Below, in pieces: positions 36,624-56,290 of a stretch of DNA of 64,000 nt; positions within the stretch are counted from its first letter, which is position 1, and every line of letters begins with the position of its first letter. The notes beneath the pieces are model-generated. The model was not told the DNA's origin, ran no database searches, and saw nothing but the letters and a program-made list of their open reading frames with translations. Source of the DNA: an uncultured candidate division Zixibacteria bacterium (GTDB taxonomy: Bacteria > Zixibacteria > MSB-5A5 > UBA10806 > 4484-95); assembly GCA_963668625.2 (NCBI GenBank), contig CAXXKA010000006.1, positions 480,001 through 544,000 of the forward strand, read 5' to 3'. The position numbers and the translations under genes were made by a program.

Positions 36624-39600
36624 TTGTTGGTGAAACTATTGGCAAGGCTTTCGGTCGTGTTAGTGGTAGTATTACTTGCTGCAGCAGCATTTGCCGGTAC
36701 TACCGGTAAAATTGCGGGTACTATTACCGATAAACAGACCGGCGAGCCACTTCCCGGTGTAAACGTACTGATATCCGGGACTAACATAGGAGCCGCCACC
36801 AACATCAAGGGCGAATTCTTTATAATCAACGTTCCTCCAGGTGAGTATCTTCTTAAAGTGAACCTTATTGGTTATCGTCCCTTAGAGGTGACCAATGTTC
36901 TGGTGACTTTGGATCTTACTACTAATCTGGATCTCGAACTCGAAACCGAGACTATCGACATGGGTACAATCACTGTCGAAGCGGAACGCCCGATGATTGA
37001 GAAGGACGTGACACATACTCGTTTACGTCTATCGCCAGATGAAATTACCAATTCGGCGGTTAGTGGTCTGATTAATCGTGTTGCGATTAATGCAGGCAAT
37101 GTTTTAGGTTCATTTCGTGGTAGTCGTGATGGCACCGGTGAAGTCGTATATCTTCTCGACGGTGTAAACATGGCTAACCCGCTGGGCGCTTATTCCGGTG
37201 TTGGTCCGGGATCGGGTCCAGATGACGCTTTGGCCGCTTATGTACCCGATGAGGGTATTGCCGAGGCTGAGGTGTTAACAGGTGGGTTCGGCGCCGAGTA
37301 TCCGAGCGTGCAGTCGGCGGTGGTTAATGTCGTTACCAAAGAGGGTTCCAAAACCTTCACCGGTAAGGTCAAGTCACAATCATCGTTGGATGCTATTCTC
37401 GGCTGGGATTATTTCGGTGATCGTACTTACAACAGTCAGGGCGACGCTGTTCGCCTGATGGAAGTTAAGGACTCGACCGGAGCTATAACCGGTTACGAGT
37501 GGACCGATGATCCGGTGCTCGATGATCACAGACGTTACAAAGTCAGAGATCAACGCAGACACGACTGGTCGTTAAGCGGTCCTCTTCCGCTCGCCAGCCT
37601 GGACATTCCCGGCGAGATGAGTTTCTCGACATCCGGTATGTACGAGTTCATTCGCGACTACCGTGATCCTTCATACTGGCGGGAATCGCAATCGTTCCAG
37701 GGAAAACTCAGCTATCAAGTTAGCTCGAGCAAGAAATTGACGATTTCCGGTTTGTCGTCGACCTCAGATCAGCTTCCCTACGATTTCAGTAGGGCGCCGA
37801 TTCTTACCTGGGGTCAGACATACAATTTCAGCGGCCCCGTTTACTGGGCCGGTTCGACCGACCAGTATTACAGGCCCGATACCATACCCGAAGGTTTGGA
37901 GCAGTATTATGTCATGACCAATGACGGGTTGGATTCCGTTTATTCTTATACGCCTTATGGATGGATCGTATCCCAGGGTTATACCTTTGTGGATGCCGAT
38001 ACTACATTCTTTAACCTGTTAAACGGTGAACTCGGATTAGCCGAGGGTGATGACGGTTATTGGGATGATTTCCCCGATGGCGAATTCGATGACAGCGATA
38101 CTCTTCTGATGGCCGCCGTTCAATCGGCTACCGATAGCCTCGAGGCTCTTGGTATAGCTCGTACTTATTCGAATTACGAGATGGCCAGTACCAGGTTTAA
38201 AACCGAGGGTAAGTCGAGCAAGATTGCTCTTAACTTTACGAATAATTTGAGTCCCAGAAGTTTCTATACTCTTATTTTTTCGCGTTTCAATACCGAGGAA
38301 TCACATCGCCAGTACGATCCCTGGGATGGTCACCCGTTAAGCTACGATGAGATGCAGGAAGCTCGTTTCCTGAGTATGGGGACCACTCAGTATCAGGAAT
38401 TCTTCGTTAACCCGATGTACCTTGGCCGCCGCCGTACCGGTGATGACAAACAAACTGTCTACACCTTCAAGGGCGACTTTACCAGCCAGGTCAATTCGAT
38501 GAACTTGATGAAGATGGGATTCGAGTATAAGAACTTCGATCTGTTTAAAGATCATACCTCGATTGCTTCCGGGGGTAACGACTATAACGATCAGTTTGCC
38601 GTTAAGCCGTTCCAGGTTGGCGCTTATGTGCAGAACAAGCTGGAAACCGAAGGCATGATTTTGAATGTTGGTTTGCGTTACGATTTCTTCGACCCGAAGA
38701 CTTTCGTACCTGCCAATCCTAACGATCCGCTTCTTCAGGATTATCTTAAAGATCCGCAGGATGTATCGACATTGTTCGATCTTCCCAAACGTCTTAAAGG
38801 CGCTGTTGATGCGAAGACCAAACAGCAGATTTCTCCTCGTATCGGTGTCAGCTATCCTATCAGCGAGAGAGACGTATTGCATATAACTTATGGCCATTAC
38901 TTCCAGCTTCCCAAGATGTACTACATGTACCAGAACCAGGGATACGATTTAAGAGGCGCGCATAAGTATATGGGCAATCCGGATCTTAAAGAAGAGAAGA
39001 CCATTGCTTATGAGGCCGGTTTAGAACACGGTTTCTCCGACTATCTCAAGTTGGCGGTAACCGGTTTCTATAAGGATATCTCGAATCTTATCACTTACCA
39101 GAAGGTTTACTACGGTAATGCTTTCTATTGGCTGTATACCAACTCGGATTACGCCAGGGTGAAAGGTTTCGAGTTAACCATGTCTCAACGCAGATGGCGT
39201 GGTTTTTCCGGTAGGGTAACTTATACTTACCAGATCGCTACCGGTAGGGCCTCCGATGGTTATCAGACATTCCAGGATGACTATGACAATCGTAAGCCTA
39301 GAACCGAAGATTTCCCGCTCGAGTGGGATCAACGTCATACCGCCAGGATTAATGTCAATTATCGCGTGCCGTTCGATTGGGGTCCGACGATAGGTGATTA
39401 TAATTTCCTTGGTGATTGGGCCGTTGACTTCTTATGGCAATACGGATCGGGTGTTCCTTATACCAGCTCGGAAAGCGTTCCGCAGCCGGAGATTCCTCCG
39501 ATCAACAACAAGAACTTCCCGGAATCATGGACGATGGATTTACGATTCGATAAAGCCTTCAAGCTGTACAAAACTTACAGGGCTAATTTCTTCGTAATCG

Positions 39601-39758
39601 TAGATAATCTTACCAACCGTGCAAACATAGTGGATGAATACACAGAGTTCGATGCCGAACGTTATGGCTTAACCGGCGATCCGGGCGGACAGTTTAACGA
39701 TCCGGATACTTATGATGCTCCGCGTAAAATCATGCTTGGAATGGAGTTCATGTTCTAG
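36624..39758 (+). CDS. TonB-dependent receptor with N-terminal carboxypeptidase-regulatory-like domain
   Basis: GTTGKIAG.ITD..TGEPLPGVNV; plug YLLDGV..NP and GGFGAEY..SAVVN.VTK; barrel N.GLRYD, SPRIG.SYP, GNPDLK.EKT..YE; terminal Phe. Confidence 0.93.
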   Translation: MLVKLLARLSVVLVVVLLAAAAFAGTTGKIAGTITDKQTGEPLPGVNVLISGTNIGAATNIKGEFFIINVPPGEYLLKVNLIGYRPLEVTNVLVTLDLTTNLDLELETETIDMGTITVEAERPMIEKDVTHTRLRLSPDEITNSAVSGLINRVAINAGNVLGSFRGSRDGTGEVVYLLDGVNMANPLGAYSGVGPGSGPDDALAAYVPDEGIAEAEVLTGGFGAEYPSVQSAVVNVVTKEGSKTFTGKVKSQSSLDAILGWDYFGDRTYNSQGDAVRLMEVKDSTGAITGYEWTDDPVLDDHRRYKVRDQRRHDWSLSGPLPLASLDIPGEMSFSTSGMYEFIRDYRDPSYWRESQSFQGKLSYQVSSSKKLTISGLSSTSDQLPYDFSRAPILTWGQTYNFSGPVYWAGSTDQYYRPDTIPEGLEQYYVMTNDGLDSVYSYTPYGWIVSQGYTFVDADTTFFNLLNGELGLAEGDDGYWDDFPDGEFDDSDTLLMAAVQSATDSLEALGIARTYSNYEMASTRFKTEGKSSKIALNFTNNLSPRSFYTLIFSRFNTEESHRQYDPWDGHPLSYDEMQEARFLSMGTTQYQEFFVNPMYLGRRRTGDDKQTVYTFKGDFTSQVNSMNLMKMGFEYKNFDLFKDHTSIASGGNDYNDQFAVKPFQVGAYVQNKLETEGMILNVGLRYDFFDPKTFVPANPNDPLLQDYLKDPQDVSTLFDLPKRLKGAVDAKTKQQISPRIGVSYPISERDVLHITYGHYFQLPKMYYMYQNQGYDLRGAHKYMGNPDLKEEKTIAYEAGLEHGFSDYLKLAVTGFYKDISNLITYQKVYYGNAFYWLYTNSDYARVKGFELTMSQRRWRGFSGRVTYTYQIATGRASDGYQTFQDDYDNRKPRTEDFPLEWDQRHTARINVNYRVPFDWGPTIGDYNFLGDWAVDFLWQYGSGVPYTSSESVPQPEIPPINNKNFPESWTMDLRFDKAFKLYKTYRANFFVIVDNLTNRANIVDEYTEFDAERYGLTGDPGGQFNDPDTYDAPRKIMLGMEFMF

Positions 39759-39823
39759 CACCTGACACCGGTCTAGTTGCTTGTTGAATTGTTTAAGAAG
39801 AAATTATGGAGGATTACCTTAAG

Positions 39824-41668
39824 ATGAGAAGATTTAACCCGGGAAATAAAGCCGGTCTTCTGTTTATCCTGGCACTGTTTGCTATCTGCCTGATAGGGGC
39901 GGAAGCAATGGCCATGGATAAAGAAGTGGCTGAAAACCCGCTTCGTGATCATCAGGGCCTGGGAAAGACGGCGGCGATCGATGAAGTAGTTTGTGAGATT
40001 GGAAATGTTTCTAATCTTATCACGAACAGTACTTCGGAGAAAGCCACCGGTACGAATGACTGGACTATCATCGTAGGTGATGATTCGGCCGAGTTGCCAT
40101 CAATGATATGGAAAACTCCGAGCCAGTATGCGAGTAATAACCATTACTTGTATTTTGCCAGTATGCGTGTCGCTTACAACGGACACAACATTCGTCTTTC
40201 GAATGATCAGGCCACTAATATCACGGTATTAGAAGGCGGGACTGATCCTAATTCTATTAGTTTATTCGATACCGAATTCTATATTGACGACCAGTCGGCG
40301 TTGGTGCCTGCTCAGTATAAAGTAGGCGTCGGCGTTCGTCAAAAAACATACGCCTGGTCGGAATCCTATCGTGATGATTTCATCATCTACGATTGGTGGA
40401 TTTACAACCTGAACGAAACCGGAATACTGGAAGATGTCTATATCGGTGTGCACGCGGATGCCGATATCTCGACTGCTGAAGGTGGTACCGGTACTCAGGC
40501 GTGGTCGCGCGATGATTTACCGGGATATTACCGGGATGATGTCAACAAAGAGTATATCTCGTATATGTTCGATGGCGACAACCCGACCGTACCCGGTAAC
40601 GATATCGGCGGTAGACTTTCACCTAAGGAAAGCGCCGGCTATATCGGTAGCCGTTTGATCTATGCTTCGGCTAATGCCGATGGTGTCGAGACGGTCCAAA
40701 CAGGCCATGCCTGGTGGGATTGGAACTCCGATCCCTCGGACGATGATGCTCAGGCGGAGTGGGCGGCACTGATTAGCGACGGTATCTGGATGGACCCGCC
40801 GCCGTCACCGCACGATTTCCGTTATTTGCAGAAATTCGGACCCTTCGACATTGAGTATGGTGATTCTATCAGAATCATGGTTGCTTTTGGTATTGGCGAG
40901 GGTTTCGATGGTTTAAAAGCCAATCTTGCCTGGGGCGACAGTTTGTTCAATAACAACTGGATCGGCCCCTCGGCCCCTACAGCTCCCAGTTTTTCGGTGG
41001 AGCCGGGCAACCAGGAAGTTACAATCACCTGGGATAATTTAGCAGAGTCCTCTCTTGACCCTGCTACGGGTGATGCCGACTTCGAAGGTTATCGTCTTTA
41101 CAGAGAGACCGCAACCGGATGGGCTCTCCTGATGGAATGCGATATTGTGGACGATCAGGGTTTCAATACCGGCCTGGTTCACTCTTATGTCGACTATGAT
41201 GTGCAGAACTATTTCCAATACACTTATGTTGTGACTTCATACGACAAGGGTGATCCCGCGAACGGTATCGAATCACTGGAGTCCGGACGTGGAAGTGGAG
41301 TTTCCGCAGAACCGGGAACTTTTGATTTAACTGCAAACGCTGAGGAGACAGAAATTCATGTGGTTCCGAACCCATTCGTGGCTCAGTCCGCTCCGAATTT
41401 CGGTTTCTCTCCTACCCAGGATAATCCGTCAACCGAAAGAATCGTCTTCGTTAATTTGCCGGATCAGTCTACGATCAGGATATATACCTTAACTGGCGAT
41501 CTCATTACCACGATTCGTAATGAGGGAAGCGACGATATTTACGCTAAAACGGCCAGTTGGGATCTTATCACTGATAATATGCAGACAATTGTAACCGGAC
41601 TTTATCTCTATGTAGTTGAAGCTCCCGGTGAAGATGATTTCATTGGCAAATTCGCGGTAATCCGCTAG
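39824..41668 (+). CDS. Secreted acidic protein with FN3-like domain and C-terminal sorting-type domain
   Basis: Signal peptide; PTAP..V.PGNQEVTITWD, DFEGYRLYR, Y.YVVTSYD.G; CTD HVVPNPF..FVNLP..IRIYTLTGDLI..WDL..GLYLYVVE..GKFAVIR. Confidence 0.8.
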   Translation: MRRFNPGNKAGLLFILALFAICLIGAEAMAMDKEVAENPLRDHQGLGKTAAIDEVVCEIGNVSNLITNSTSEKATGTNDWTIIVGDDSAELPSMIWKTPSQYASNNHYLYFASMRVAYNGHNIRLSNDQATNITVLEGGTDPNSISLFDTEFYIDDQSALVPAQYKVGVGVRQKTYAWSESYRDDFIIYDWWIYNLNETGILEDVYIGVHADADISTAEGGTGTQAWSRDDLPGYYRDDVNKEYISYMFDGDNPTVPGNDIGGRLSPKESAGYIGSRLIYASANADGVETVQTGHAWWDWNSDPSDDDAQAEWAALISDGIWMDPPPSPHDFRYLQKFGPFDIEYGDSIRIMVAFGIGEGFDGLKANLAWGDSLFNNNWIGPSAPTAPSFSVEPGNQEVTITWDNLAESSLDPATGDADFEGYRLYRETATGWALLMECDIVDDQGFNTGLVHSYVDYDVQNYFQYTYVVTSYDKGDPANGIESLESGRGSGVSAEPGTFDLTANAEETEIHVVPNPFVAQSAPNFGFSPTQDNPSTERIVFVNLPDQSTIRIYTLTGDLITTIRNEGSDDIYAKTASWDLITDNMQTIVTGLYLYVVEAPGEDDFIGKFAVIR

Positions 41669-41694
41669 ACGAGATGATTGGAGGATTTGAGGAT

Positions 41695-42759
41695 ATGAAA
41701 AAAATCAACCTTGTTATGGTAGCAATTGCCTTGGTGCTTCTTATAGTACCGGCTCATAGCCAGAACAACAAGGTCGGAACAGTCGGTTTCAAGTTTTTAG
41801 ATATTGGAGTCGGCGGCCGAGCTCAGGCTATGGGGGAGGCATATGCTGCTTTAGGTACTGATGCCTCGGCGGTGTTTTGGAACCCTGCGGGTGTTGCCAA
41901 TATCCAGGGTGGAGATTTGTTTGCTGGTTTTACGAAATGGCCGGCTGACATCAGTCTTACCTCGGTGGCCTTGGCATATCGCGTATCGTTACCGGCAATA
42001 GGTCCGGGCACCATGGCGCTGTCAGGTACAGTGTTAAATACAGGTTTAATGAACCGTACTTCCGAATATGATCCGGATGGCGATTACTCAGGTACATTTG
42101 CCTACGAGGATTATGCTTTCGGCGTGACATTAGGTAAATACCTAACCGACCGATTCGCTTTTGGCGGAACATTTAAAGTAATCCATGAAAAAATCGCTGA
42201 TTGGGATGAGACCAGTTGGGCTTTCGATGTCGGTACTTATTATGAGACCGGTTTCAAGTCTATTCGTATTGGTATCTCTATCCTGAATTTCGGCCCCGAT
42301 GTAACATTCTCGGTCGATGATGACGGCGATGGTCGTGTGGATGAAGATCCGGTTGATGGTATCAGCCAGGATGATGACAATAATGATGGTGTTATCGATG
42401 GTCTTGATCTGGATGGTGAAGACGTAGAGCAAAAAGCTACTCCTTTACCATTAACTTTCAGGGCCGGTATTGCTATGGATGTTCTCCAGACGGAGTCATC
42501 CAGAGCTACGATTGTCGCCGAATTGGCACATCCTCCGGATAACGAAGAGCGCTATCAACTCGGCGGCGAGTACTGGCTTGCCGAGATGTTGGCTGTTAGG
42601 GCTGGATATAGACTCAATATGGACGAGGGTGGATTTACGGCCGGCGCCGGATTTAAATTCCCCTTCAGTGGTTCGAGCGCCTTCTCGGTGGATTATGCTT
42701 TCACCGATTTAGGCAGACTCTCCTCTACCCATAGAGTCTCAACCAATATTTCGTTTTAA
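41695..42759 (+). CDS. PorV/PorQ (UPF0164)-like outer membrane beta-barrel
   Basis: FLDIGVGGRAQAMGEA..A...DASAVFWNPAG, N.GP, PL.FR.G, VDYAF...G.L...HR.S and terminal Phe. Confidence 0.85.
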   Translation: MKKINLVMVAIALVLLIVPAHSQNNKVGTVGFKFLDIGVGGRAQAMGEAYAALGTDASAVFWNPAGVANIQGGDLFAGFTKWPADISLTSVALAYRVSLPAIGPGTMALSGTVLNTGLMNRTSEYDPDGDYSGTFAYEDYAFGVTLGKYLTDRFAFGGTFKVIHEKIADWDETSWAFDVGTYYETGFKSIRIGISILNFGPDVTFSVDDDGDGRVDEDPVDGISQDDDNNDGVIDGLDLDGEDVEQKATPLPLTFRAGIAMDVLQTESSRATIVAELAHPPDNEERYQLGGEYWLAEMLAVRAGYRLNMDEGGFTAGAGFKFPFSGSSAFSVDYAFTDLGRLSSTHRVSTNISF

Positions 42760-42789
42760 TTAACCGCTGAAAGATGATGGAGGAAAGAA

Positions 42790-44538
42790 GTGAATATGAA
42801 GAAAAAACTGGGTTTTAAGGTTTTAGGCCTGGTGGTTTTCTCGCTCCTCTTGGCGGTTAACTGTGCAGAAGAAGGAACCGCACCGGACGAGAATATTCCA
42901 CCTAATACCTTTATAACCAACTACCAGATCGAGATTGGCCCTGATTCGGCAACCGCTTATACGACTGATATCTATTGGAGCGGAAATGACGTTGACGGCG
43001 CTATTTTCTGGTATGAGTGGAGTGCAATTAATGCCACTGGAGATAGCTTGAAATGGTACATCGATACCGATGGTGTCATTGATACGGTAAATATCTCCGA
43101 ATGGCAGACAACCAATACCCTGAGCATGTCGATATTGCTTGATTTCCCGAATTTCGACACCAAGTACATCTTCAGGGTCAGGGCAATGGATAACGATCGA
43201 GAAGTCGATCCGACTCCTGCTGTCGATACGATTTCGATCGACAGAATTCGTGATTTTAACTACGCACCTAATACGGATATCGTAGAAGGCCCGAAAGTCG
43301 AATCGCAACCTAATATAACCACCTCCGGCATTCATTTCATTGTCAGGGGAATGGATATTGATGGTGCAGTCGAATTTATCGAGTATATGGTAGATACGCA
43401 AGCTGAATGGACACAGGAAAGCACTGATATCACAACCAGTACCCTGACATTCGATATCACCGACTTGACTGAAGGTCCTCATACGATATCATTCAGATCG
43501 GTTGACAATTTCGGAAAAGTCGATCCATCGCCATACACTGTCAGTGTTGTGGTTGATACGACTCTAAGACCTGATCTTACAATCGTATCCGGACCTATTC
43601 CGAATGCATACTATTACCTGCCTGCCGGTGGGACTTCATTGGACCTTGCAGCCGAATGGAGTGGATCGGCCGCCTGGTATTTCAGCTCGGTACAATATCA
43701 GTATGCCGTAGATGATACCACAACCTGGTCTGATCTCATGGATGGATCCACGGCCACCTTAATGGGGCTTTCCGCTACGAGCCATGAATTCTATGTTAAA
43801 GCCATAGATCTGGCAGGGAATGCTTCAGTCTATAAAACCGATTTCGCGGTTGGTGCCTTTGTCGGCGATCAAGGCGTTCTGGTTATGAATGGCATACATC
43901 AGGGCGCTTATGGGGCCGAATTCGATGATTTCTGGAATGGAGTCGATTTTGAATTCGATTTCGATTTCTGGGATGCTTTTGGCGGCCAGGATTATTCGAG
44001 TATACCTACGCTAGATGATGCTTATATCGGTAATGGGATATTAGATGGTTCGACACTGTCGCATTACAGCTCGTTCGTGATGATCATGAATGGCTATAAC
44101 GGCGACCTTGAAGTCTACCAGGCTATGTTTCCGCTTATCATGTCGTACTTGAATGCCGGTGGTAACGTTTACCTCGGAACTCGTTACGCCACTAGTAATA
44201 TTTATGGTGATCTTGAAACTTACGCTCACATCGATAGTTGGGATCAAGAAGGGGTTATCCTTGACCCGGGTATTGTGGCGGCTGTTGAGGGATTGATAAA
44301 TATCGATGGCGCCGACCTAGCGGGATCTGATCTACCTGCTATTCCAACCGATCCTGAAGTGACTGTAATTTTCACTCACCCATCTTATCCCAATGCCGCT
44401 GCCGGGATATATGTTGAACCGAGTGCAACTGGTAAATTCGCTTTTATTTCCGGCAGGCCTTATCGTTACAATCAGGCGGCTTATGGGGATAATGTGAATT
44501 ATATAGTCGATAACTACTTTGGCGAAGGTGCCGAATAA
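42790..44538 (+). CDS. Acidic lipoprotein with Ig-like repeats and a C-terminal alpha/beta domain
   Basis: LAVNC lipobox; repeated PP.T.I..W.G.D.DG and FRVRA.DND..VDPTP; SYLNAGGNVYLG. Confidence 0.8.
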   Translation: MNMKKKLGFKVLGLVVFSLLLAVNCAEEGTAPDENIPPNTFITNYQIEIGPDSATAYTTDIYWSGNDVDGAIFWYEWSAINATGDSLKWYIDTDGVIDTVNISEWQTTNTLSMSILLDFPNFDTKYIFRVRAMDNDREVDPTPAVDTISIDRIRDFNYAPNTDIVEGPKVESQPNITTSGIHFIVRGMDIDGAVEFIEYMVDTQAEWTQESTDITTSTLTFDITDLTEGPHTISFRSVDNFGKVDPSPYTVSVVVDTTLRPDLTIVSGPIPNAYYYLPAGGTSLDLAAEWSGSAAWYFSSVQYQYAVDDTTTWSDLMDGSTATLMGLSATSHEFYVKAIDLAGNASVYKTDFAVGAFVGDQGVLVMNGIHQGAYGAEFDDFWNGVDFEFDFDFWDAFGGQDYSSIPTLDDAYIGNGILDGSTLSHYSSFVMIMNGYNGDLEVYQAMFPLIMSYLNAGGNVYLGTRYATSNIYGDLETYAHIDSWDQEGVILDPGIVAAVEGLINIDGADLAGSDLPAIPTDPEVTVIFTHPSYPNAAAGIYVEPSATGKFAFISGRPYRYNQAAYGDNVNYIVDNYFGEGAE

Positions 44539-44566
44539 CCATTAACCGGATGAAAGGAGTAAAGAA

Positions 44567-46123: not shown

Positions 46124-46143
46124 TCGATTCACTAGCTGAAAAC

Positions 46144-46176
46144 AAAGCCCATCCGCATTATGTGGGTGGGCTTTTT
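46144..46176 (+). terminator. Intra-cluster terminator between the outer-membrane module and dacB
   Basis: AAAGCCCATCCGCA-TTA-TGTGGGTGGGC-TTTTT; the dacB ATG lies 12 nt downstream. Confidence 0.8.
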
Positions 46177-46188
46177 AAATGAGGTAAA

Positions 46189-47637: not shown

Positions 47638-47638
47638 A

Positions 47639-48910
47639 ATGGATTATTTCGTAAGAAAAAATGGCAGGCTTCACTGCGAATCGGTTCCGCTGGCAAAGCT
47701 GGCGTCTAAATACGGCACGCCGCTTTATGTCTACAGCTTGCGGACATTCGTCCGTCATTTCAAAATTGCTTCCCGGGCTTTTGGCAAAATACCTCATGCT
47801 ATATTTTACTCGGCCAAGGCAAATTCAAATCTATCAATACTTTCTGCAATCGCCAGGCTTGATGGCGGGTGTGATGTTGTCTCGATAGGCGAATATCTTT
47901 CGGCTCGCAAAGCGGGTATCAAGCGGATAATATTCTCCGGCGCGGGCAAGCAAGAGCATGAGATAGAGGAGACGCTTGGCAAAGGGCTCGAGTTCTATGG
48001 CGTGGAATCGGAAAACGAGCTGAACTTGATCGAGAAAGTAGCTAAAAAAATCGGTAAAACCGCCCCAATATCATTAAGGGTAAATCCGGATGTTGATCCC
48101 AAGACTCATAAACATATCGCGACAGGTTTGAAAACCGAGAAATTCGGTATAGATTATAAAAAGATACTGGCTATCTATAAAAGATGCGCCAAGTCTGACA
48201 ATCTCAAGCCGGTGGCTATCTCTATGCATCTGGGATCTCAGATTCAAACTACCAAACCGTTTGTCGAGGGATTTAAGGTATTAAAAGATATCTATTTAAG
48301 ATTACTGGAACAAAGTATCATTTTAAAGCATATTGACTTAGGAGGGGGATGGGCAGCCCCGTTCGATAGATATCAGAAGCTACCCGGACCCTCCGACTAT
48401 ATCAAGGCGTTAATCCCATATATGAAAGGGTTGGATGTCGAGTTTATAGTCGAGCCAGGCAGATCTCTTGTTGGCAATGCCGGTGTGCTTTTAAGCAGAA
48501 TAGTATATATAAAGGATGGTTTCGGTAAGAAATTCGTCATTATCGATGCCGGTATGAACGATTTGATCAGGCCTGCCCTTTATAGCGCATATCATAGGGT
48601 AGAGCCTGTAATAGAGAGACCGGGGCAGTCGTTTAAGGCGGATGTTGTCGGGCCGATATGTGAAAGCTCCGATACTTTCGCCCGCAAGATAAAGCTTAGT
48701 GGGCTTAAAGAGGGGGATTTACTTTGCATGTTCACCACCGGGGCCTATGGACATTCTATGTCCTCGACTTACAACAGCAGACCCCGTTCGGCGGAGGTGC
48801 TAGTTAAAGGCAGCAAGGATTATCTAATACGTGAAAGAGAGAGTTATTCCGATCTATGGAAGAAACAAAAATTAATAGACTTGAAGAATATAAATCGCGT
48901 GAAAATATAG
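47639..48910 (+). CDS. lysA: Diaminopimelate decarboxylase
   Basis: YGTPLYVY, YSAKAN, RVNPDV..TH..I.TG...KFG, HLGSQ, EPGR, GPICES, GAYG..MSS.YN.RPR. Confidence 0.96.
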   Translation: MDYFVRKNGRLHCESVPLAKLASKYGTPLYVYSLRTFVRHFKIASRAFGKIPHAIFYSAKANSNLSILSAIARLDGGCDVVSIGEYLSARKAGIKRIIFSGAGKQEHEIEETLGKGLEFYGVESENELNLIEKVAKKIGKTAPISLRVNPDVDPKTHKHIATGLKTEKFGIDYKKILAIYKRCAKSDNLKPVAISMHLGSQIQTTKPFVEGFKVLKDIYLRLLEQSIILKHIDLGGGWAAPFDRYQKLPGPSDYIKALIPYMKGLDVEFIVEPGRSLVGNAGVLLSRIVYIKDGFGKKFVIIDAGMNDLIRPALYSAYHRVEPVIERPGQSFKADVVGPICESSDTFARKIKLSGLKEGDLLCMFTTGAYGHSMSSTYNSRPRSAEVLVKGSKDYLIRERESYSDLWKKQKLIDLKNINRVKI

Positions 48911-50019
48911 CTACCTCAAGGCCATCATACCTGGAAATCGACCTGGGAGCGTTTCAGCGTAATTTTAACAGGATTAAAATGCTGGCCGGGAAGAATACCT
49001 CCATTATGGCGGTAGTCAAGGCTAATGCTTATGGTCATGGGTTGGTAGAGATAGCCCGAAGCGCGATTAAGATGGGCGCGAATCTTCTGGGTGTTGCCCT
49101 GGTAGAGGAGGCAGTCAAACTTCAGGAGGCGGGTGTACGAGCGCCTATCGTAGTGCTATATCCTGATATCCCCGAACGCGCCTCGAACCTGGTGCAGGCC
49201 GGTTTGGTCGCTACGGTCGATTCCGGAGAGTATTTGCAGGCTCTATCGAGACAATCGGTGGAACAGGGAAAACGAACCGAGGTGTTCGTAAAGATCGAAA
49301 CAGGCATGGGGCGTTTTGGCGTCACCGAGTCGGGATTGCAAGATTTGGTTGAGACGGCCAATAATTTGCCCGGTATTAAGGTAATCGGGCTTTCGACTAA
49401 TTTAGCAGATTCCTCCAACGGAGATACCTCATTTACCGATGGTCAGTTCGATCGATTCAAATTTTTAAGCGATTTATGCAATCTTAACGATATCAAGTAC
49501 TTAAGCATTGAAAACTCTAGCGGCTTGCTTTTCCATCACCATAACTATTATAATCTTGTCAGGGTTGGTTTACTGATGTATGGTTATTACCCGAAACAGG
49601 CGGCCGAGGCCGAATTCGAGCCGGTGATGAGCTTGAAAAGCAAAATCGTCCAGATACGTAATTGGCCTGCCGGTAAACCGATTGGTTACGGCGGTAAGTA
49701 TGTTCCCAGAGAGGATATACTTCTGGCAACCGTTGGTGTGGGCTATGCTGATGGTTATCCGTGGGCTTTGTCGAATGAAAGCCAGGTGCTGATCAGGGGA
49801 AGACGCGCGCCTGTCGTGGGCAGGGTTTGCATGGATGCTTTGATGATTGATGTTAGTAGTATATCCGGCGTAAGTAAAGGTGATGAGGTCGTGCTCCTGG
49901 GCAAATCTGGAGATGAGTTTATCGACGCCAATGAGCTGGGCGAGTTGGCCGGGTCGTTTTCATATGAAATAATAGCCGGTATGTCCGAAAGACTGCCGAG
50001 AGTGTACGTGGGAGGATAA
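48856..50019 (+). CDS. alr: Alanine racemase family protein (variant motifs)
   Basis: AVVKANAYGHG, TGMGRFG, VRVG, IGYGG, GYADG, GRVCMD, YEI; start uncertain because of overlap with lysA. Confidence 0.88.
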   Translation: MEETKINRLEEYKSRENIATSRPSYLEIDLGAFQRNFNRIKMLAGKNTSIMAVVKANAYGHGLVEIARSAIKMGANLLGVALVEEAVKLQEAGVRAPIVVLYPDIPERASNLVQAGLVATVDSGEYLQALSRQSVEQGKRTEVFVKIETGMGRFGVTESGLQDLVETANNLPGIKVIGLSTNLADSSNGDTSFTDGQFDRFKFLSDLCNLNDIKYLSIENSSGLLFHHHNYYNLVRVGLLMYGYYPKQAAEAEFEPVMSLKSKIVQIRNWPAGKPIGYGGKYVPREDILLATVGVGYADGYPWALSNESQVLIRGRRAPVVGRVCMDALMIDVSSISGVSKGDEVVLLGKSGDEFIDANELGELAGSFSYEIIAGMSERLPRVYVGG

Positions 50020-50804
50020 TGTCTTACAGAGTTAATATCAATATAGCAAATATCAGGCTCGAGCCGAAATTCCGCTCCGAGCGGATCAGCCAGGCCCTGT
50101 TTAACGAGCCGGTGGAGATACTCGAAAAAGGTGAGGATTTCTCGAAAGTCAAATTGCCCGATCAGTACGAGGGATATATCAGGAATAGTTTTTTATCCTC
50201 GGATGATGTCCAGAAAGAGGGCGATTTCATGGTTTCGGCCACTATCGCCATAGGCTATATCGGGGCTGATGAACGCGCGCCCTCGGCTACTATGCTGCCT
50301 TTTACCTCGGTAGTTAAAGCCGCCCGTATGGCCAATAATTTCGTGGTGATAGAGACGCCACGTTATGGCGATATCTATATCATGCAGGATGATTTAATCC
50401 CGCTGACACATCGCCCGAAACTTACCCGCGAGGATACCCGGACGTTTCTGGAGAGCGCCAGACGGTTCATTGGCGTGCCTTATTTATGGGGCGGCAAGAG
50501 CTTTTTCGGTATAGACTGTTCGGGATTAACTCAGGTTAATTTCAAGTTTTTCGGAATTGATCTTCCACGGGATACCAAGGACCAACGTCATGTCGGCAGG
50601 GAGATCGAGCGTAAGGATATCCTACCGGGTGATCTTCTGTTTTTCGAACGTCATGTAGCAATTGCCATCAATGAGATGACCTTTATCCATTCCAGCAATA
50701 AAACCGGCGGGGTATATATCAACAGTTTAGACCCAGAGCAGGATAATTACCTGGAGCATCTGGATAAAGGGCTTCAAGCCGTAAGGCGGGTTATTGAGGA
50801 CTAA
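50019..50804 (+). CDS. SH3b-NlpC/P60 gamma-D-glutamyl-diamino acid endopeptidase (YkfC-like)
   Basis: SERISQALF.E SH3b-like region; GVPYLWGG..GIDCSG, LPRD, PGDLLFF.HVAI..FIHS; no signal peptide; TAATG coupling to alr. Confidence 0.88.
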   Translation: MSYRVNINIANIRLEPKFRSERISQALFNEPVEILEKGEDFSKVKLPDQYEGYIRNSFLSSDDVQKEGDFMVSATIAIGYIGADERAPSATMLPFTSVVKAARMANNFVVIETPRYGDIYIMQDDLIPLTHRPKLTREDTRTFLESARRFIGVPYLWGGKSFFGIDCSGLTQVNFKFFGIDLPRDTKDQRHVGREIERKDILPGDLLFFERHVAIAINEMTFIHSSNKTGGVYINSLDPEQDNYLEHLDKGLQAVRRVIED

Positions 50805-51918
50805 AGCCATACTGGTACTCGCTGCGTTTATCATCTGCCTGATAATAGTGGTGATGATACGGCAGTCATGCGAGGGAACCATAAAGCTCCACCATCACGA
50901 CTTTTACGAACAAAAAGCTGATTGGAGCGGTTATACGCTCGAGAATATGCGGTTTGATGACCGTAAGGATTTGCTTGTCTCTGAGGTTCTAAAGCTACCA
51001 TCTCAGCTCCGATCCGGAGAACATCACACAGTTTATGAATTCTATGAGATATTGTTATCGTGGAACATGATGGTTGAGCCGGGTGGCGGTGTTTTCGTGG
51101 AATTATCAGTTAGTCCGGATAGCCTTAAGTGGTATGACTTTCACTATCAGGTATGGGGGGATATGAACCCCGATACGCTGGATTTGCCAGAGTTACCTGC
51201 GAGAATAGAAAATGTAGGCTACGTGGATGAGGATATAATACGCTTGAAGCAACCGATGAATTATTACAGGTATGCCTTATACATGTATCCTGGCGAGCCT
51301 GCCGGTAATATCAGTTTCCGTCGGGCGGTGGTTTGCTATACTAAAACCGAGGCGAGTATGAGGGAGTATCGTAAGTTCACCGGTGATTTCCCCGACATTC
51401 AGCCTGTCAAGCTTTCAGTACCGTATAAATCTCAGCAATGGCTGCCAGATTCTATCTCGGGTAGAACATGCAGCCCCACCAGCGTGACCATGGTGTTAAA
51501 CCATCATTTGCTGGACTACGACCACCTGGAGGTAAGCGATGAACTGTACGATCGCTACAATGATATTTACGGAAACTGGCTTTACAACGTACAGGGGGCT
51601 TACATGCTGGGTATGAAACGAACCTGGGTTGGCAGGCACAACTCGTTTAATGAGTTAGTGCCGGAAATCCTGGATGGCAAGCCGGTTGCTATAAGCATTG
51701 CCGTTAGAGGCGATCAGGCGCTAACCGGCGCTCCGTATGAGAAGACCAGCGGCCATTTGATAGTGGTACGTGGTTTTGATGAGGCGGGCAACGTGCTGGT
51801 TAACGATCCGGCGGCCTCTAATCAAGATGATGGAATAGTGACTTATGATATAAACGAGCTAACCGATGTCTGGGTCGGTCACGAGGGGGTGGCGTATCAT
51901 TTATGGCCAACAGAATGA
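50794..51918 (+). CDS. C39-like cysteine peptidase, membrane-anchored or exported
   Basis: N-terminal hydrophobic helix; VPYKSQ, CSPTSVTMVL, YGNW..N, GHLIVVRGFD..GNVLVNDPA. Confidence 0.8.
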   Translation: MRTKAILVLAAFIICLIIVVMIRQSCEGTIKLHHHDFYEQKADWSGYTLENMRFDDRKDLLVSEVLKLPSQLRSGEHHTVYEFYEILLSWNMMVEPGGGVFVELSVSPDSLKWYDFHYQVWGDMNPDTLDLPELPARIENVGYVDEDIIRLKQPMNYYRYALYMYPGEPAGNISFRRAVVCYTKTEASMREYRKFTGDFPDIQPVKLSVPYKSQQWLPDSISGRTCSPTSVTMVLNHHLLDYDHLEVSDELYDRYNDIYGNWLYNVQGAYMLGMKRTWVGRHNSFNELVPEILDGKPVAISIAVRGDQALTGAPYEKTSGHLIVVRGFDEAGNVLVNDPAASNQDDGIVTYDINELTDVWVGHEGVAYHLWPTE

Positions 51919-52847
51919 GAAAACCAAAAGCGCTCGAACCGGGCGATAAAATAGCTATAGTGGCTCCGGCATCCTCGGCGCCGAAAGATAAGCTGACACT
52001 GGGAGCTAACCGTCTACGGGAGGCCGGCTACGAGGTGTATATTCATCCGCAGTGCTACAAAAAACGCGGTTACCTGGCGGGCGAGGACAAAGTGCGGGCG
52101 GCGGCTCTGATGGAGGTGTTCACTGATGATCAATATAGCGCTGTTGTTTGTGCTCGAGGTGGTTTCGGTTGCCATCGACTGTTAAAGCATCTTGATCTGG
52201 ATCTGATAAGGAAACATCCCAAGGTATTCGTGGGCTACTCCGATATCACCGTACTACACGCGGCTTTTCAAAAAAATGGCTTCGTCACATTCCATGGCGC
52301 GATGCCCTCGATTGATATCTGCAGCAGAAATTATCATTATAACCTGGTCAATTTCATTAACGCGGTTAGTTTTAACGAACCAATAGGCCTGCTGGAAAAT
52401 CCTGATTCACTCGGTGCCATGAGAAAATATCACGATGGGCAAGCAGAGGGCGTGCTGGTTGGCGGTAATATCTCTCTTCTGGATAAGCTGATTGGCTCGA
52501 AGTATGTACCATCATTTAAAAATAAAATAGTGCTTTTGGAGGATACAGATGAGGAGCCATACCGCATTGACGGTTACCTCGGGCATCTTTTCCAGAATAC
52601 TGATATAGAGAGTGCGGCCGGTTTCGTTATTGGCGAGTGGGTGAAAGTTGGGATTACTCATCGCAACAAGGTAAGCCTGACACTTGCTCAGGTATTCGAT
52701 GACTATTTCAAAACGATGAAAGTGCCGATAATAACTAATGTGGCCTGCGGCCACGGAAAAAATGTCTTAACCATCCCGCTGGGTGTGAAGGCTCGTATTG
52801 ATGGTGATAAGAAACGTTTCGAGATAGTCGAGAAGGCGGTTAGCTAA
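51915..52847 (+). CDS. ldcA: Muramoyltetrapeptide LD-carboxypeptidase (S66)
   Basis: IVAPAS, RGGFG, GYSDIT, GGNIS, LEDTDE, GHG; ATGA overlap with the previous gene. Confidence 0.93.
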   Translation: MRKPKALEPGDKIAIVAPASSAPKDKLTLGANRLREAGYEVYIHPQCYKKRGYLAGEDKVRAAALMEVFTDDQYSAVVCARGGFGCHRLLKHLDLDLIRKHPKVFVGYSDITVLHAAFQKNGFVTFHGAMPSIDICSRNYHYNLVNFINAVSFNEPIGLLENPDSLGAMRKYHDGQAEGVLVGGNISLLDKLIGSKYVPSFKNKIVLLEDTDEEPYRIDGYLGHLFQNTDIESAAGFVIGEWVKVGITHRNKVSLTLAQVFDDYFKTMKVPIITNVACGHGKNVLTIPLGVKARIDGDKKRFEIVEKAVS

Positions 52848-53846
52848 ATGAATATCGAACATAAGATTGTCAAAGTACATATGAAGGAGACGTTCAGGAT
52901 TGCCCATGGCGCCTCCGATGATAAAGACCTCGTGATAGTCAATATCGAGGGCGGTCTGGGTGAGGCCTCGCCGGTTCATTACTACGGCGAATCGGTTGAC
53001 ACTATCACCAGTTTCGTGAAAAAGGCCGGCGATGTCATCGGTGATGATATTTTCAAGCTTGAGGATATCGTTGATAATCTTAGCAACATGATGGCTTACA
53101 ACACCGCCGCCAAGGCTGCCATAGACATGGCTCTTCATGATGCGGTTGGTAAGAAGTTGGGAATCCCGGTCTACAAGATGCTGGGAATTACGCCGCGTGA
53201 TGATATCCCTACCTCGTATACGATCTCGATAAATACACCCGATAAGGTGAAAAAGCAAACCGAGGCCAATCCCGGTTACCAGATATACAAGCTGAAAGTG
53301 GGAGTGCCTGGCGATATCGATATGGTCGCAGCCGTGCGGGATGTTACCGATGCCCGTATCCGTGTGGATGCCAATGAGGGTTGGACGCTGAAAGAGGCTA
53401 TCCAGAAAATGAAGCATCTGGAGAAATACGATGTCGAGTTCATAGAGCAACCGTTGCATCGTCTCGATTTCGAGGGGATGCGCATACTCCGCGCGAAATC
53501 GAACCTGCCTATTATCGCAGATGAGGGCATTTTCAATGCGGCAAGCATCCCGATATACAAAGACCTGGTTGACGGCGTTAATATCAAGCTGCAGAAATCA
53601 GGAGGTATCCGCGAGGCATTCAAGATGGTGGCCGTTGCTCGGGCGTTCAAGCTTAAGGTGATGATCGGCTGTATGGTGGAAAGCTCGGTCGGTATCTCGG
53701 CCGCCGCCCAGATAGCGCCGCTGGTGGATTATGTCGATCTCGATGGTAATTTGCTTATCGGTGATGATCCCTACGATGGCATTGGCGCGGTAAACGGCGT
53801 GCTTAAATATAACGATCGCCCCGGTATCGGCGTAGTGGAAAAATAA
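52848..53846 (+). CDS. L-Ala-D/L-Glu dipeptide epimerase (enolase superfamily)
   Basis: F.IAHG, GEA.P, KLKVG, VDANEG, EQP, ADE, NIKLQK, MIGCMVES, DLDG. Confidence 0.92.
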   Translation: MNIEHKIVKVHMKETFRIAHGASDDKDLVIVNIEGGLGEASPVHYYGESVDTITSFVKKAGDVIGDDIFKLEDIVDNLSNMMAYNTAAKAAIDMALHDAVGKKLGIPVYKMLGITPRDDIPTSYTISINTPDKVKKQTEANPGYQIYKLKVGVPGDIDMVAAVRDVTDARIRVDANEGWTLKEAIQKMKHLEKYDVEFIEQPLHRLDFEGMRILRAKSNLPIIADEGIFNAASIPIYKDLVDGVNIKLQKSGGIREAFKMVAVARAFKLKVMIGCMVESSVGISAAAQIAPLVDYVDLDGNLLIGDDPYDGIGAVNGVLKYNDRPGIGVVEK

Positions 53847-53848
53847 TA

Positions 53849-55636
53849 ATGTATCGAATAATATTTATCATACTTGTTTTATCATCTATATGCTACGCTC
53901 AAAATCATATCGAGGTTGTTTATCCCAAAGATGGCCGGCAAATTGCGGCGGTCGATTCGACATTTATTTTCGGTAATACTAATCCCAAAGCTAAACTCAC
54001 TATCAACGGCTATCGGGTTGAGGTGCATAAAAGCGGCGGATTCCTGGCGTTCCTGCCCGTAAATCGAGGTGAATTCGAGTTCGAGTTGATATCAGATTAT
54101 AAAGGCGAGATAGCTATCTGCCATACCCGGGTGCATATAGGTAACGGTTTCAGTGAATCGGACAGTGGCCTAATCGATCACAGCTCTGTATCACCCTTGG
54201 GAGAAACTATTCTCTTGCGTGATGATGTTTTAGAATTCAGTATCCGGGCAAAATCCGGGCTCAACCTGTATTGCTTTTTCGAGAGTGATTCTATTTGGAC
54301 AAGAATGTACGGACAAAACAACGGACAATTGAGTTCGGTGTTCGGCGAGGTGGCTGATTTTCATAATAACGGTGGCATTGATACTTATACGGGCTACTTG
54401 TCGATAAGCTCTATTCCCGACTCCTCGAAAGTGTATTATATGTACGATAGCGAGGTTTACGATACCACCGGCGAGCTTGAATACACCGAATTCGAGATTT
54501 TCGAGACCGAGTATTATGTTAAAGCCTTAGATGAGCTTCCGTATCGCACGTTGGCGCTAACCGGTCGGCCTCATATAATCCGCGTTGGCGCGGGAAAGGG
54601 GAACAGGATGGTGAATTTGCCGGAGGGCGTGAGATTCCTTTATAGCGGCGAGACACCCGCGTATTACAGGGTGCGATTAGCTGATGCCGTAAGCGGCTAT
54701 ATTCGCAAATCCGATGCCAAGATGCAGCCGGAGGGTACGCCCGTACCGGAGGGCGAGGTTGCGTTTGTTACACTGGATAATTACGATGATCATATTCTGC
54801 TAAAAATGAAAACTGGCGATATGCTACCGTATGAGATTCACACCGATGGCAATATCATGACAATAGATTTCTACTACCTGATATCCGATACAGACTGGAT
54901 TCGTTTCAACGATAACTCGCAGGAGTACATCGAATCGATCTGGTGGAGCCAGCCTGTCGATGGTGTCTACCGTCTGCATTTAAAGTGGTGTGATTCGCAT
55001 TTCTGGGGTTATGCTCCGGGTTATGATAATAATACGTTTACATTGAGGCTTCAAAAGAATCTGGCTTCGCAATCTGTTTTCAACTCGCCTGTTAAGGGGG
55101 TGCGTATAGTACTCGATCCGGGGCACTCGCATGATAACGGCGCGGTCGGACCAACCGGACTGACCGAGAAAAACGCTAATTTATGGCTAGCTTACGAGCT
55201 GCGAAGAATCCTTCAGGATAAAGGCGCTGAGGTGTTGATGACCCGTATGGGCCATGAGCATCTGGGGATTTACGACAGGGTAGACAGCGCTAATGTATGG
55301 GATGCCGACCTCTTGATCAGCATACATAATAATGCTCTGCCTGATGGTATCAATCCATACGAGCATAACGGTACCTCGACATTTTACTATTTCAATCAGG
55401 CGCGGCCGCTGGCGCAGGCGATTCATCGAAATATGATCAAAGCAACCGGTCTGCCTGATCATGGATTATACTATGGCAATCTGGCTTTATGCCGGGTGAC
55501 CGAATGCCCTTCTGTATTAGTTGAGTGCGCTTTTATGATGATACCCGAACAGGAAGCGGCGCTCAAAACCGATAAGTTCCAGCGTAAATGCGCTAAGGCG
55601 ATTTATAAAGGGATATGTGAATATCTGCGGCCGTGA
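53849..55636 (+). CDS. N-acetylmuramoyl-L-alanine amidase (Amidase_3), exported
   Basis: Signal peptide; LDPGH, GL.EK..NL, MTR, R...AN..ADLLISIHNNA, PSVLVE. Confidence 0.93.
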   Translation: MYRIIFIILVLSSICYAQNHIEVVYPKDGRQIAAVDSTFIFGNTNPKAKLTINGYRVEVHKSGGFLAFLPVNRGEFEFELISDYKGEIAICHTRVHIGNGFSESDSGLIDHSSVSPLGETILLRDDVLEFSIRAKSGLNLYCFFESDSIWTRMYGQNNGQLSSVFGEVADFHNNGGIDTYTGYLSISSIPDSSKVYYMYDSEVYDTTGELEYTEFEIFETEYYVKALDELPYRTLALTGRPHIIRVGAGKGNRMVNLPEGVRFLYSGETPAYYRVRLADAVSGYIRKSDAKMQPEGTPVPEGEVAFVTLDNYDDHILLKMKTGDMLPYEIHTDGNIMTIDFYYLISDTDWIRFNDNSQEYIESIWWSQPVDGVYRLHLKWCDSHFWGYAPGYDNNTFTLRLQKNLASQSVFNSPVKGVRIVLDPGHSHDNGAVGPTGLTEKNANLWLAYELRRILQDKGAEVLMTRMGHEHLGIYDRVDSANVWDADLLISIHNNALPDGINPYEHNGTSTFYYFNQARPLAQAIHRNMIKATGLPDHGLYYGNLALCRVTECPSVLVECAFMMIPEQEAALKTDKFQRKCAKAIYKGICEYLRP

Positions 55637-55666
55637 TTATTTTATTATCAATTGGAAATATCTCCT

Positions 55667-56230: not shown

Positions 56231-56290
56231 CTAATTGATTGAGTATGTACTATTTCTTAGTATAAGATTGTATATATGATCTAAGTTATA

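Follow-up and report, generated by a model that had tools for sequence, protein, structure and literature searches.

A TonB-dependent receptor cassette adjoining a murein-peptide enzyme block in an uncultured Zixibacteria genome: a candidate route for peptidoglycan-fragment uptake

Thirteen co-directional genes in two adjoining units

We analysed a window of 64,000 nucleotides (C6:480001-544000) from the genome of an uncultured sediment bacterium of the candidate division Zixibacteria (G000; 4.3 Mb in 10 contigs, 95.9% complete) and focus on a locus at window positions 36624-55636, where 13 open reading frames (ORFs), all on the + strand, follow one another with gaps of 47, 5, 30, 28, 65, 1, -55, -1, -11, -16, 0, and 2 nt. 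Genes 1-5 (36624-46123) form an outer-membrane cassette of a TonB-dependent receptor, a secreted protein (g2), an outer-membrane barrel, and two lipoproteins (g4 and g5), and genes 6-13 (46189-55636) form an enzyme block. An earlier note, made from the letters of this DNA, had described 13 co-directional genes with short gaps or overlaps, and all of them were recovered with matches to the families it had named. Upstream lie the housekeeping genes ftsK, polA, and coaE together with an aminotransferase gene, and downstream a convergent sugar ABC transporter. We read the locus as two adjoining, anciently linked units, one for capture and import and one for dismantling stem peptides, a reading that we hold to be about evenly balanced between right and wrong.

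Families were assigned to the 13 proteins using Pfam and NCBIfam models with their cut-offs, and localisation was judged by eye from hydrophobic stretches or a lipobox at the N-termini. On this by-eye reading, hydrophobic N-termini occur in the five envelope proteins, DacB, the C39-like protein (as a signal anchor), and the amidase, while LysA, Alr, the NlpC/P60 protein, LdcA, and the epimerase have none, which matches the split into exported and cytoplasmic enzymes that the earlier note had proposed.

Enzyme families of the block

The block opens with a predicted exported DD-carboxypeptidase/endopeptidase of the DacB/PBP4 type (S13; 46189..47637), which carries a signal-peptide-like N-terminus and matches TIGR00666 at 253.6 bits (cut-off 107.8) and PF02113 at 290 bits. 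It is followed by the diaminopimelate decarboxylase LysA (47639..48910; predicted cytoplasmic; TIGR01048 454.3 bits, cut-off 297.9) and by an alanine racemase (48856..50019; TIGR00492 346.9 bits, cut-off 168); the latter had been called "Alr-like", a correct family assignment that the NCBIfam equivalog refines to a full alanine racemase. This lysA is the genome's only copy above the LysA cut-off, a paralogue on C8 scoring below it at 260.3 bits. A second alanine racemase gene, above its cut-off at 270.3 bits, lies at C6:561623-562771 (L004 3618-4790), beside a sodium/solute symporter gene.

The fourth gene of the block (50019..50804) encodes a predicted cytoplasmic, YkfC-like SH3b-SH3b-NlpC/P60 gamma-D-Glu-diamino-acid endopeptidase (PF00877, PF08239, and PF18348; no signal peptide). 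The protein aligns end to end with 3npf (89 bits) and 3pvq (87 bits), both named 'dipeptidyl-peptidase VI', and also with 3h41, and we take these three to be YkfC structures from Bacteroides and B. cereus. The Cys-containing and His-containing motifs are retained in the alignment to 3npf, and the Cys and His residues are presumably the catalytic ones. In some genomes of family f2, this gene is tandemly duplicated (L024 14529-16201, L028 3994-5657, and L070 9148-10823). Next comes a predicted membrane-anchored protein (50794..51918) with an N-terminal hydrophobic helix and a Peptidase_C39_2 domain at residues 207-340 (PF13529, 70.2 bits), for which no solved relative was found and whose residues 1-206 match no family.

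The LdcA-type LD-carboxypeptidase (S66; 51903..52847; predicted cytoplasmic) matches both S66 domains (PF02016 at 134.8 bits and PF17676 at 105.6 bits) and scores 128.5 bits against the NF008424 equivalog, for which the cut-off is 378. The adjoining gene (52848..53846; PF13378 and PF02746) encodes a putative dipeptide epimerase of the L-Ala-D/L-Glu type, a member of the MR/MLE branch of the enolase superfamily. Its best solved relative is 3iji (251.9 bits), followed by 3jva ('Dipeptide Epimerase') and 1jpm ('L-Ala-D/L-Glu Epimerase'), and the alignment to 3iji conserves the motifs that we take to hold the Lys pair, the metal ligands, and the dipeptide-recognition residues. The protein falls under every NCBIfam equivalog cut-off (228 vs 400 for its top row, the N-acetyl-D-Glu racemase DgcA; 184 vs 500 for the Thermotoga AE epimerase; 128 vs 343 for PRK15129), so its exact substrate is suggested by the neighbouring genes.

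The last gene (53849..55636) encodes a predicted exported N-acetylmuramoyl-L-alanine amidase, in which ~415 aa of beta-sandwich domains precede the Amidase_3 domain (PF01520, 152.5 bits); the N-terminal 400 residues yielded generic immunoglobulin (Ig)-like fold matches only. The Amidase_3 domain aligns to CwlV (1jwq) in one stretch and to AmiA and AmiC in two, and its model fold has a template-modeling (TM) score of 0.88 to CwlV vs 0.70 to AmiA. Elsewhere in the genome, a second Amidase_3 gene (C6:763097-763747) carries a 46-48-residue insertion exactly where the in-cluster amidase has none, an insertion that we take to be the autoinhibitory helix of AmiA/AmiB/AmiC. Judged by alignment and predicted fold, the in-cluster amidase falls outside the regulated division type represented by AmiA/AmiB/AmiC, and the gene at C6:763097-763747 probably encodes that type.

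The published YkfA/YkfB/YkfC scheme, as outlined in the account cited here, runs from an LD-carboxypeptidase to a gamma-D-Glu-DAP endopeptidase, followed by an L-Ala-D-Glu epimerase (PMC2954226), and by family membership the three cytoplasmic core enzymes of the block fit it. With LysA and Alr added, each unusual residue of the stem peptide would have a converting enzyme in the block, and we consider it very probable that the block is a murein-peptide salvage or catabolic pathway.

A SusD-less outer-membrane cassette

The TonB-dependent receptor (36624..39758; 1044 aa) has an N-terminal CarboxypepD_reg domain (PF13715, 71.3 bits) and a barrel match (PF00593, 105.9 bits) spanning residues 521-995. 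Its Plug match is weak (PF07715, 18.7 bits vs a cut-off of 23.9), and a paralogous receptor on C8 has a clear Plug (45.8 bits). Against the SusC/RagA model TIGR04056, the receptor reaches 64.8 bits with a cut-off of 368.25, and it is thus not of the SusC/RagA type. The proposal of an uptake module without SusD held for the whole 95.9%-complete genome, in which SusD_RagB (PF07980) has 0 matches, the Bacteroides thetaiotaomicron control being positive.

The second gene (39806..41668) encodes g2, a predicted secreted protein of 620 aa without a Pfam family, which scores 19.6 bits against TIGR04183, below the cut-off of 23. Its AlphaFold2 model (mean predicted local distance difference test, pLDDT, 81.7) begins with a beta-supersandwich, continues with an FN3-like domain, and ends in a beta-sandwich, the N-domain weakly resembling the non-catalytic N-domains of GH94/GH161 phosphorylases (TM ~0.3). 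Shorter g2 homologues carry PF18962, NCBI gives one homologue the name 'T9SS type A sorting domain-containing protein', and the translocon SprA of the T9SS (type IX secretion system) is encoded in the genome (712.6 bits summed). We propose that g2 is a surface ligand binder carrying a T9SS C-terminal domain.

The third gene (41674..42759) encodes an outer-membrane barrel of the PorV/PorQ family (NF033709, 192.2 bits; cut-off 90) that scores below the cut-offs of both the PorQ (86.4 bits) and the PorV (63.3 bits) equivalogs. A predicted complex between this barrel and g2 residues 380-614 scored 0.90, the best of 3 controls reaching 0.00; in the benchmark, the mark was reached by 58/80 solved complexes and 2/110 mismatched pairs. 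At least 83% of the contacts agreed between runs, partner pLDDT was at least 80, and the contacts fell on g2 residues 461-614. This supports but does not show that the C-terminal domain of g2 binds its neighbouring barrel; PorV-CTD (C-terminal domain) structures may exist, and the high score may owe something to resemblance to known PorV-cargo complexes. The five outer-membrane or surface genes of the earlier note are thus all present, with the third refined to a PorV/PorQ-family barrel and the second to its predicted T9SS cargo.

Two lipoproteins close the cassette. The first, g4 (42790..44538; 582 aa), has a lipobox-like N-terminus and Ig-like repeats with weak Big_13 and OmpL47-type matches, and the second, g5 (44567..46123; 518 aa), has a classic lipobox at the end of its N-terminal stretch and no Pfam or NCBIfam family. 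The two are weakly similar to each other (E 0.001). Their nearest Atlas clusters by language-model features are nameless and derive from Ignavibacteriota and Fidelibacterota, and the nearest named Atlas family to both is DUF4960 (0.91). At L058 9842-13816, a 1324-aa ORF fuses a g2-like N-domain (47-52% identity) with g5-like and g4-like regions, and similar matches occur in L059, L061, and L063; the flanks hold no wall enzymes. Such natural fusions in relatives hint that g2, g4, and g5 act together.

A conserved hairpin between cassette and enzymes

The 65-nt gap between g5 and dacB (46124-46188) contains a terminator-like hairpin on the + strand (46145..46176) with a 13-14 bp GC-rich stem and a 3-nt loop at 46145-46173, followed by a T5 run to 46176, which leaves 12 nt to the ATG of dacB. 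The folding energy of the hairpin is -22.4 kcal/mol (z -6.05), a value equalled by 0/200 shuffles. It was found by reading the gap and then folding, and it is absent from the list produced by a consensus terminator scan. Across loci, we searched for the best hairpin with at least 4 T in the next 8 nt (the shuffle control being that on the window copy), and a g5-dacB hairpin with a T-rich tail was present in 13/13 loci examined, at -20.7 to -33 kcal/mol. The stem sequences vary on both arms among these 13 loci with pairing kept. A terminator-like element after the cassette was also found in L055 and in 5/6 distant linked loci, the candidate in L086 being no clean terminator.

In families f1-f3, the stretch between the hairpin and dacB is too short for a promoter, so transcription of the enzymes would have to pass through the hairpin from a start inside the cassette or upstream of it. 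The hairpin may be a partial terminator or attenuator, or else a 3' stabiliser of the cassette mRNA.

Conservation of the cassette-enzyme linkage

Besides the gene identities, the analysis establishes that the linkage is conserved and that the linked receptors are related. Full-length g2 orthologues were found in 10/10 genomes of family f1 (G000 counted), 13/14 of f2, and 2/2 of f3, and other families gave matches to the g2 tail domain only. Of 151 sampled genomes of the phylum, 12 had a g2 orthologue and 56 had the epimerase (E <= 1e-50). Two loci, L022 and L035, were omitted from the g2 orthologue alignment because a stop codon fell within the cut stretches. The g2 orthologue matches at G004:C5:44447-46312 (TAA) and G024:C51:121478-123256 (TAG) each span one in-frame stop, which might mean that the gene is broken, that the sequence is in error, or that the alignment overruns the true end.

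We examined 22 cassette loci, 16 of which reach past g5 and are informative. The gene after g5 encodes a wall-peptide enzyme in 15 of these 16 (dacB in 13, lysA in 1, and alr in 1), G006 being the sole exception. The full enzyme run, or a run to the contig or locus end, was seen in 13/16, while the run ends after dacB in G013 and after lysA in G021; at L050, the cassette abuts alr, with dacB and lysA missing. The receptor orthologues share 43-74% identity across 20 related loci from three families of the order or class, and an arrangement kept across three families at such receptor identities exceeds chance.

Beyond these families, 20 epimerase loci from distant families were inspected. Seven of them have a co-directional receptor and PorV-like barrel immediately upstream of the enzyme block (two in f8, one in f17, three in f5, and one in f16), and lysA occurs in 0/20. 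Unlinked modules in relatives had been named beforehand as grounds for rejecting the idea of one system, and this refutation mostly fails: linkage was found in 15/16 informative loci, and a related receptor clade is linked to the same enzymes in four further families. The block stands alone at 13 of the 20 distant loci. By comparison across these genomes, the cassette-enzyme linkage is old.

Receptor phylogeny and other cassette copies

In a maximum-likelihood tree of 26 receptors (the fragments L092_5100 and L097_16167 omitted), 6 receptors of distant wall-linked loci form one clade (100/99) and the f1-f3 receptors a separate one (100/100). A clade of 18 (100/99) encloses both of these as well as 3 unlinked copies, and 8 other receptor paralogues fall outside it. 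On this tree, the link to wall enzymes takes two changes: either it arose once, early, and one duplicate then escaped, or there were two separate recruitments. These receptors are kin and hence non-independent, and no probability is attached to the linkage pattern. The five distant class genomes each hold 3-7 receptor-matched stretches, equal to 2-5 receptor genes, and with so few receptors per genome and the linked copies in related clades, chance adjacency is unlikely.

The genome has two further copies of the cassette (receptor, T9SS-tail protein, and PorV-like barrel), at C4:292024-297675 (L001) and C8:313000-328000 (L002), one followed by a PfkB-like kinase and two TldD/PmbA peptidases and the other surrounded by large uncharacterised proteins and an NHL-repeat protein. 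Eight PorV-family barrels in the genome score above the cut-off. Among the 9 paralogue loci fetched, 7 keep the order receptor, g2-like protein, PorV-like barrel, and in an eighth the receptor and barrel are present but a g2-like match is lacking; wall enzymes are absent from all 9. The trio of receptor, g2-like protein, and PorV-like barrel also occurs in a Tariuqbacter metagenome-assembled genome (MAG) and one further MAG, and a receptor with a PorV-like barrel occurs in a Bacteroidota MAG. The cassette is a reusable general module. It is probably a module for import, given its analogy to known uptake systems and its recurrence beside degradative genes. Whether its ligand here is derived from peptidoglycan we consider an even call, the conserved adjacency and the receptor tree being what point that way.

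A proposed pathway from captured fragment to amino acids

We infer the direction of import, a muropeptide ligand, a foreign origin of the substrate, and a role for the hairpin, and propose the following scheme. The TonB-dependent receptor would carry out transport across the outer membrane, g2 would be held on the surface by its C-terminal domain docked on its own neighbouring PorV/PorQ-like barrel, and the two Ig-like lipoproteins g4 and g5 would complete an import cassette filling the role that SusC/SusD has in Bacteroidota. An importer encoded outside the locus would then carry stem peptides inward. In the cytoplasm, LdcA would take off D-Ala4, the YkfC-like enzyme would cut gamma-D-Glu-mDAP (meso-diaminopimelate), the epimerase would convert L-Ala-D-Glu to L-Ala-L-Glu, LysA would convert mDAP to L-Lys, and Alr would convert D-Ala to L-Ala. 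All non-standard residues of the stem peptide would end as L-Ala, L-Glu, and L-Lys instead of being re-ligated by Mpl. The hairpin before dacB probably sets a high ratio of cassette to enzymes, with the enzymes produced by read-through.

The recycling genes of the genome at large bear on this scheme. The absence of an Mpl ligase from the cluster, claimed in the earlier note, was confirmed and extends to the genome, where the best TIGR01081 match, inside the mur cluster, scores 206.3 bits vs a cut-off of 388.7. AmpG (TIGR00901) has 0 matches in the 95.9%-complete genome, and no re-ligation route of the E. coli type (AmpG-AmpD-Mpl) was found in it. DapF is present, as is MurQ, which stands alone in a neighbourhood without a wall-sugar locus.

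The suggestion of a system analogous to a polysaccharide utilization locus (PUL), feeding on foreign walls, thus stands as to gene content, linkage, and the lack of Mpl and SusD, but no result shows a preference for foreign over own wall, and self-recycling keeps a lower but appreciable probability. Feeding on the wall debris of other cells is plausible, at roughly even strength; the data suggest it without proving it, and they do so only because a TonB-dependent receptor imports from outside. The description of a stem-peptide catabolic operon stands likewise as to the enzyme set, but lysA is the genome's sole bona fide copy and the hairpin splits the modules.

Several observations weigh against a dedicated joint system. 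With no second lysA above the cut-off and with DapF encoded, part of the block would be biosynthetic housekeeping and not purely catabolic, and DacB and an amidase belong to the usual periplasmic equipment for wall remodelling. The resemblance of g2 to known folds is weak. The cluster encodes neither an inner-membrane peptide transporter nor a glycan-cleaving enzyme, and the genome offers one SBP_bac_5 protein elsewhere (C6:175540) and no match to the POT family. By summed scores, the best match of this receptor in distant genomes is the wall-linked copy in 1/5 and another copy in 4/5, and the receptor tree was used in place of orthology by best match. The conserved hairpin between the modules makes a single simple operon across both unlikely, and co-transcription is not assured. 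A look-up of sequencing runs containing the locus gave three, of DNA or unstated type, and none of RNA.

The linkage itself is broken in places. G006, G013, and G021 carry the block alr-nlpC-C39-(ldcA)-epimerase-amidase at a site away from the cassette, a separation seen in genus g7 (G013 and G021) and genus g5 (G006, and G009 by contig). In G006 and G013, the split-off block directly follows a 387-aa ORF matching the aminotransferase of this locus by size alone, and convergent or nearby ORFs match in size the ABC transporter genes flanking this locus. The split-off blocks of these two genomes keep flanks of matching ORF size, so the cassette with dacB (and lysA) behaves as an insertable unit. 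The 13 distant epimerase loci without a receptor within the fetched 20 kb belong to f18, f15, f11, f4, f19, f6, and f7, and in f15 and f11 dacB belongs to the cassette-free block. Since the block often lacks a cassette and is split from it in 3 genera, it works as a self-sufficient unit.

Alternative explanations

In the strongest alternative, the enzymes salvage only the cell's own turnover peptides, freed by the amidase and DacB, while the cassette imports an unrelated nutrient and the adjacency is merely inherited. The self-sufficiency of the block at 13 of 20 distant loci and after splits in 3 genera fits such a scheme, as do the terminator-like hairpin between the units, the housekeeping status of lysA, and the sister cassettes that adjoin unrelated genes (TldD/PmbA and an NHL protein); moreover, the role given to the core enzymes in the published account is YkfABC-type salvage of own wall peptides (PMC2954226). 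The alternative has to face, however, a linkage kept in 15/16 informative loci across three families, and a sister receptor clade linked to the same enzymes in four more families despite only 2-5 receptor genes per genome (5 genomes searched). The missing promoter room between hairpin and dacB in f1-f3 (12 nt here) also implies read-through from within the cassette or upstream of it. We regard recycling of own wall alone as a serious but unlikely explanation.

A purely biosynthetic or remodelling cluster, with dacB, lysA, alr, ldcA, and the amidase engaged in building the wall and separating cells and not in recovering nutrients, would account for the sole lysA copy in a genome with DapF, for an alr that supplies D-Ala for synthesis, and for upstream neighbours such as ftsK, polA, coaE, and the aminotransferase. 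It leaves the cytoplasmic YkfC-like endopeptidase and the dipeptide epimerase without a biosynthetic role, as far as the published description of these enzymes goes (PMC2954226). Another alr elsewhere in the genome, and another amidase that bears the insertion, are available for housekeeping, and lysA is in none of the 20 distant blocks, and we judge this explanation improbable.

Protease secretion in Myxococcus depends on Oar, which bears a CarboxypepD_reg domain, and Bdellovibrio delivers secreted DacB homologues into its prey. An outward-acting system, in which the receptor-like barrel exports or displays DacB, the amidase, and the C39-like protein to attack neighbouring cells, would suit the Oar-like domain order of the receptor (CarboxypepD_reg and barrel), its weak Plug match, and the dacB that stays with the cassette after the split in genus g7, but it is very improbable, because the amidase and DacB have no T9SS tail or other surface signal, dacB sits in the cassette-free block of f15 and f11, the L050 cassette abuts alr without dacB and lysA, and the cytoplasmic half of the pathway is sensible only if peptides enter.

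Relation to known systems

The core chemistry proposed here is shared with YkfA-YkfB-YkfC of Bacillus subtilis and with the E. coli route through LdcA, MpaA, YcjG, and PepD, at the level of detail given in the published account (PMC2954226). The likeness to Ykf extends to the same three families (LD-carboxypeptidase, SH3b-NlpC/P60 endopeptidase, and L-Ala-D/L-Glu epimerase), which in that description are likewise cytoplasmic and adjacent. Unlike Ykf, the block adds dacB, lysA, alr, the C39-like protease, and an exported amidase predicted to be unregulated, and the partner to which it is linked is an outer-membrane receptor cassette, not a Dpp/Opp ABC transporter, with no Mpl or AmpG found.

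The cassette resembles a SusC/SusD (RagA/RagB) PUL in placing a TonB-dependent receptor and surface accessory proteins beside enzymes for one substrate, and in being duplicated as a module beside other enzyme sets. It differs in the absence of SusD from the genome, in a receptor that fails the SusC/RagA model, and in a partner that is a predicted T9SS cargo with a private PorV/PorQ-like barrel and not a lipoprotein lid; the substrate, too, would be a peptide-bearing wall fragment and not a plain glycan. A neighbour-encoded barrel that holds its cargo by a C-terminal domain recalls PorQ-PorZ and the PorP/SprF-type pairs with type B CTDs, the binding here being predicted only. As described in the sources cited, PorP/SprF pairs consist of a dedicated barrel encoded beside the cargo that it holds on the surface (PMC9143113, PMC12618676), and PorQ-PorZ is a further barrel-cargo pair (PMC10947112). 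The known pairs serve the assembly of the secretion system or gliding adhesins in Bacteroidota, whereas the pair here is fixed beside a TonB-dependent receptor, in a nutrient locus, in another phylum.

Proven life on foreign wall fragments in a Gram-negative member of the FCB (Fibrobacterota-Chlorobiota-Bacteroidota) group is reported for Tannerella forsythia, which, according to the account available, salvages the sugar via AmpG for its own wall synthesis (MurT-MurK-MurQ) (PMC7670621). The locus here would instead target the peptide, in a genome without an AmpG match, and the portions of the Tannerella account that we consulted name no outer-membrane transporter (PMC7670621).

Our search covered open-access main texts, in the parts accessible to us, and found there no description of a TonB-dependent route for wall fragments or of a cassette of receptor, T9SS cargo, and PorV-like barrel; the open-access Zixibacteria papers, again in their main texts as far as accessible, yielded no mention of this locus. 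Within the literature searched, the core enzymes are thus already known, and the type of outer-membrane import machine is undescribed. A Gram-negative outer-membrane route for peptidoglycan fragments of ~1-2 kDa was likewise not found to be established in that literature.

Sediments and soils contain a large stock of carbon, nitrogen, and D-amino acids in the form of peptidoglycan. If the proposed pathway is true, an outer-membrane route and a lineage could be named for the turnover of peptidoglycan necromass in sediments. The locus supplies testable candidates (the receptor, three surface proteins, and the anchor barrel), and the logic of the enzyme set predicts L-Ala, L-Glu, and L-Lys as products. 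It would also extend to a non-glycan substrate the cassette type that apparently stands in for SusC/SusD in FCB phyla lacking SusD, and, if confirmed, the annotation of nutrient loci in many uncultured lineages would change. In its widest form, which we put forward tentatively and somewhat below an even chance, SusD-less FCB phyla use a TonB machine with a T9SS-secreted binder on a private PorQ-like barrel, and the present copy and its sister clade have been dedicated to foreign peptidoglycan since before the family split, with the stem peptide turned wholly into L-amino acids and a conserved attenuator hairpin setting the ratio of cassette to enzymes.

Sequence downstream of the locus

The ~650 nt (55637-56290) that separate the stop codon of the amidase gene from the next gene, which is convergent, contain no ORF of at least 100 aa, and an apparent short coding remnant there is broken by in-frame stops.

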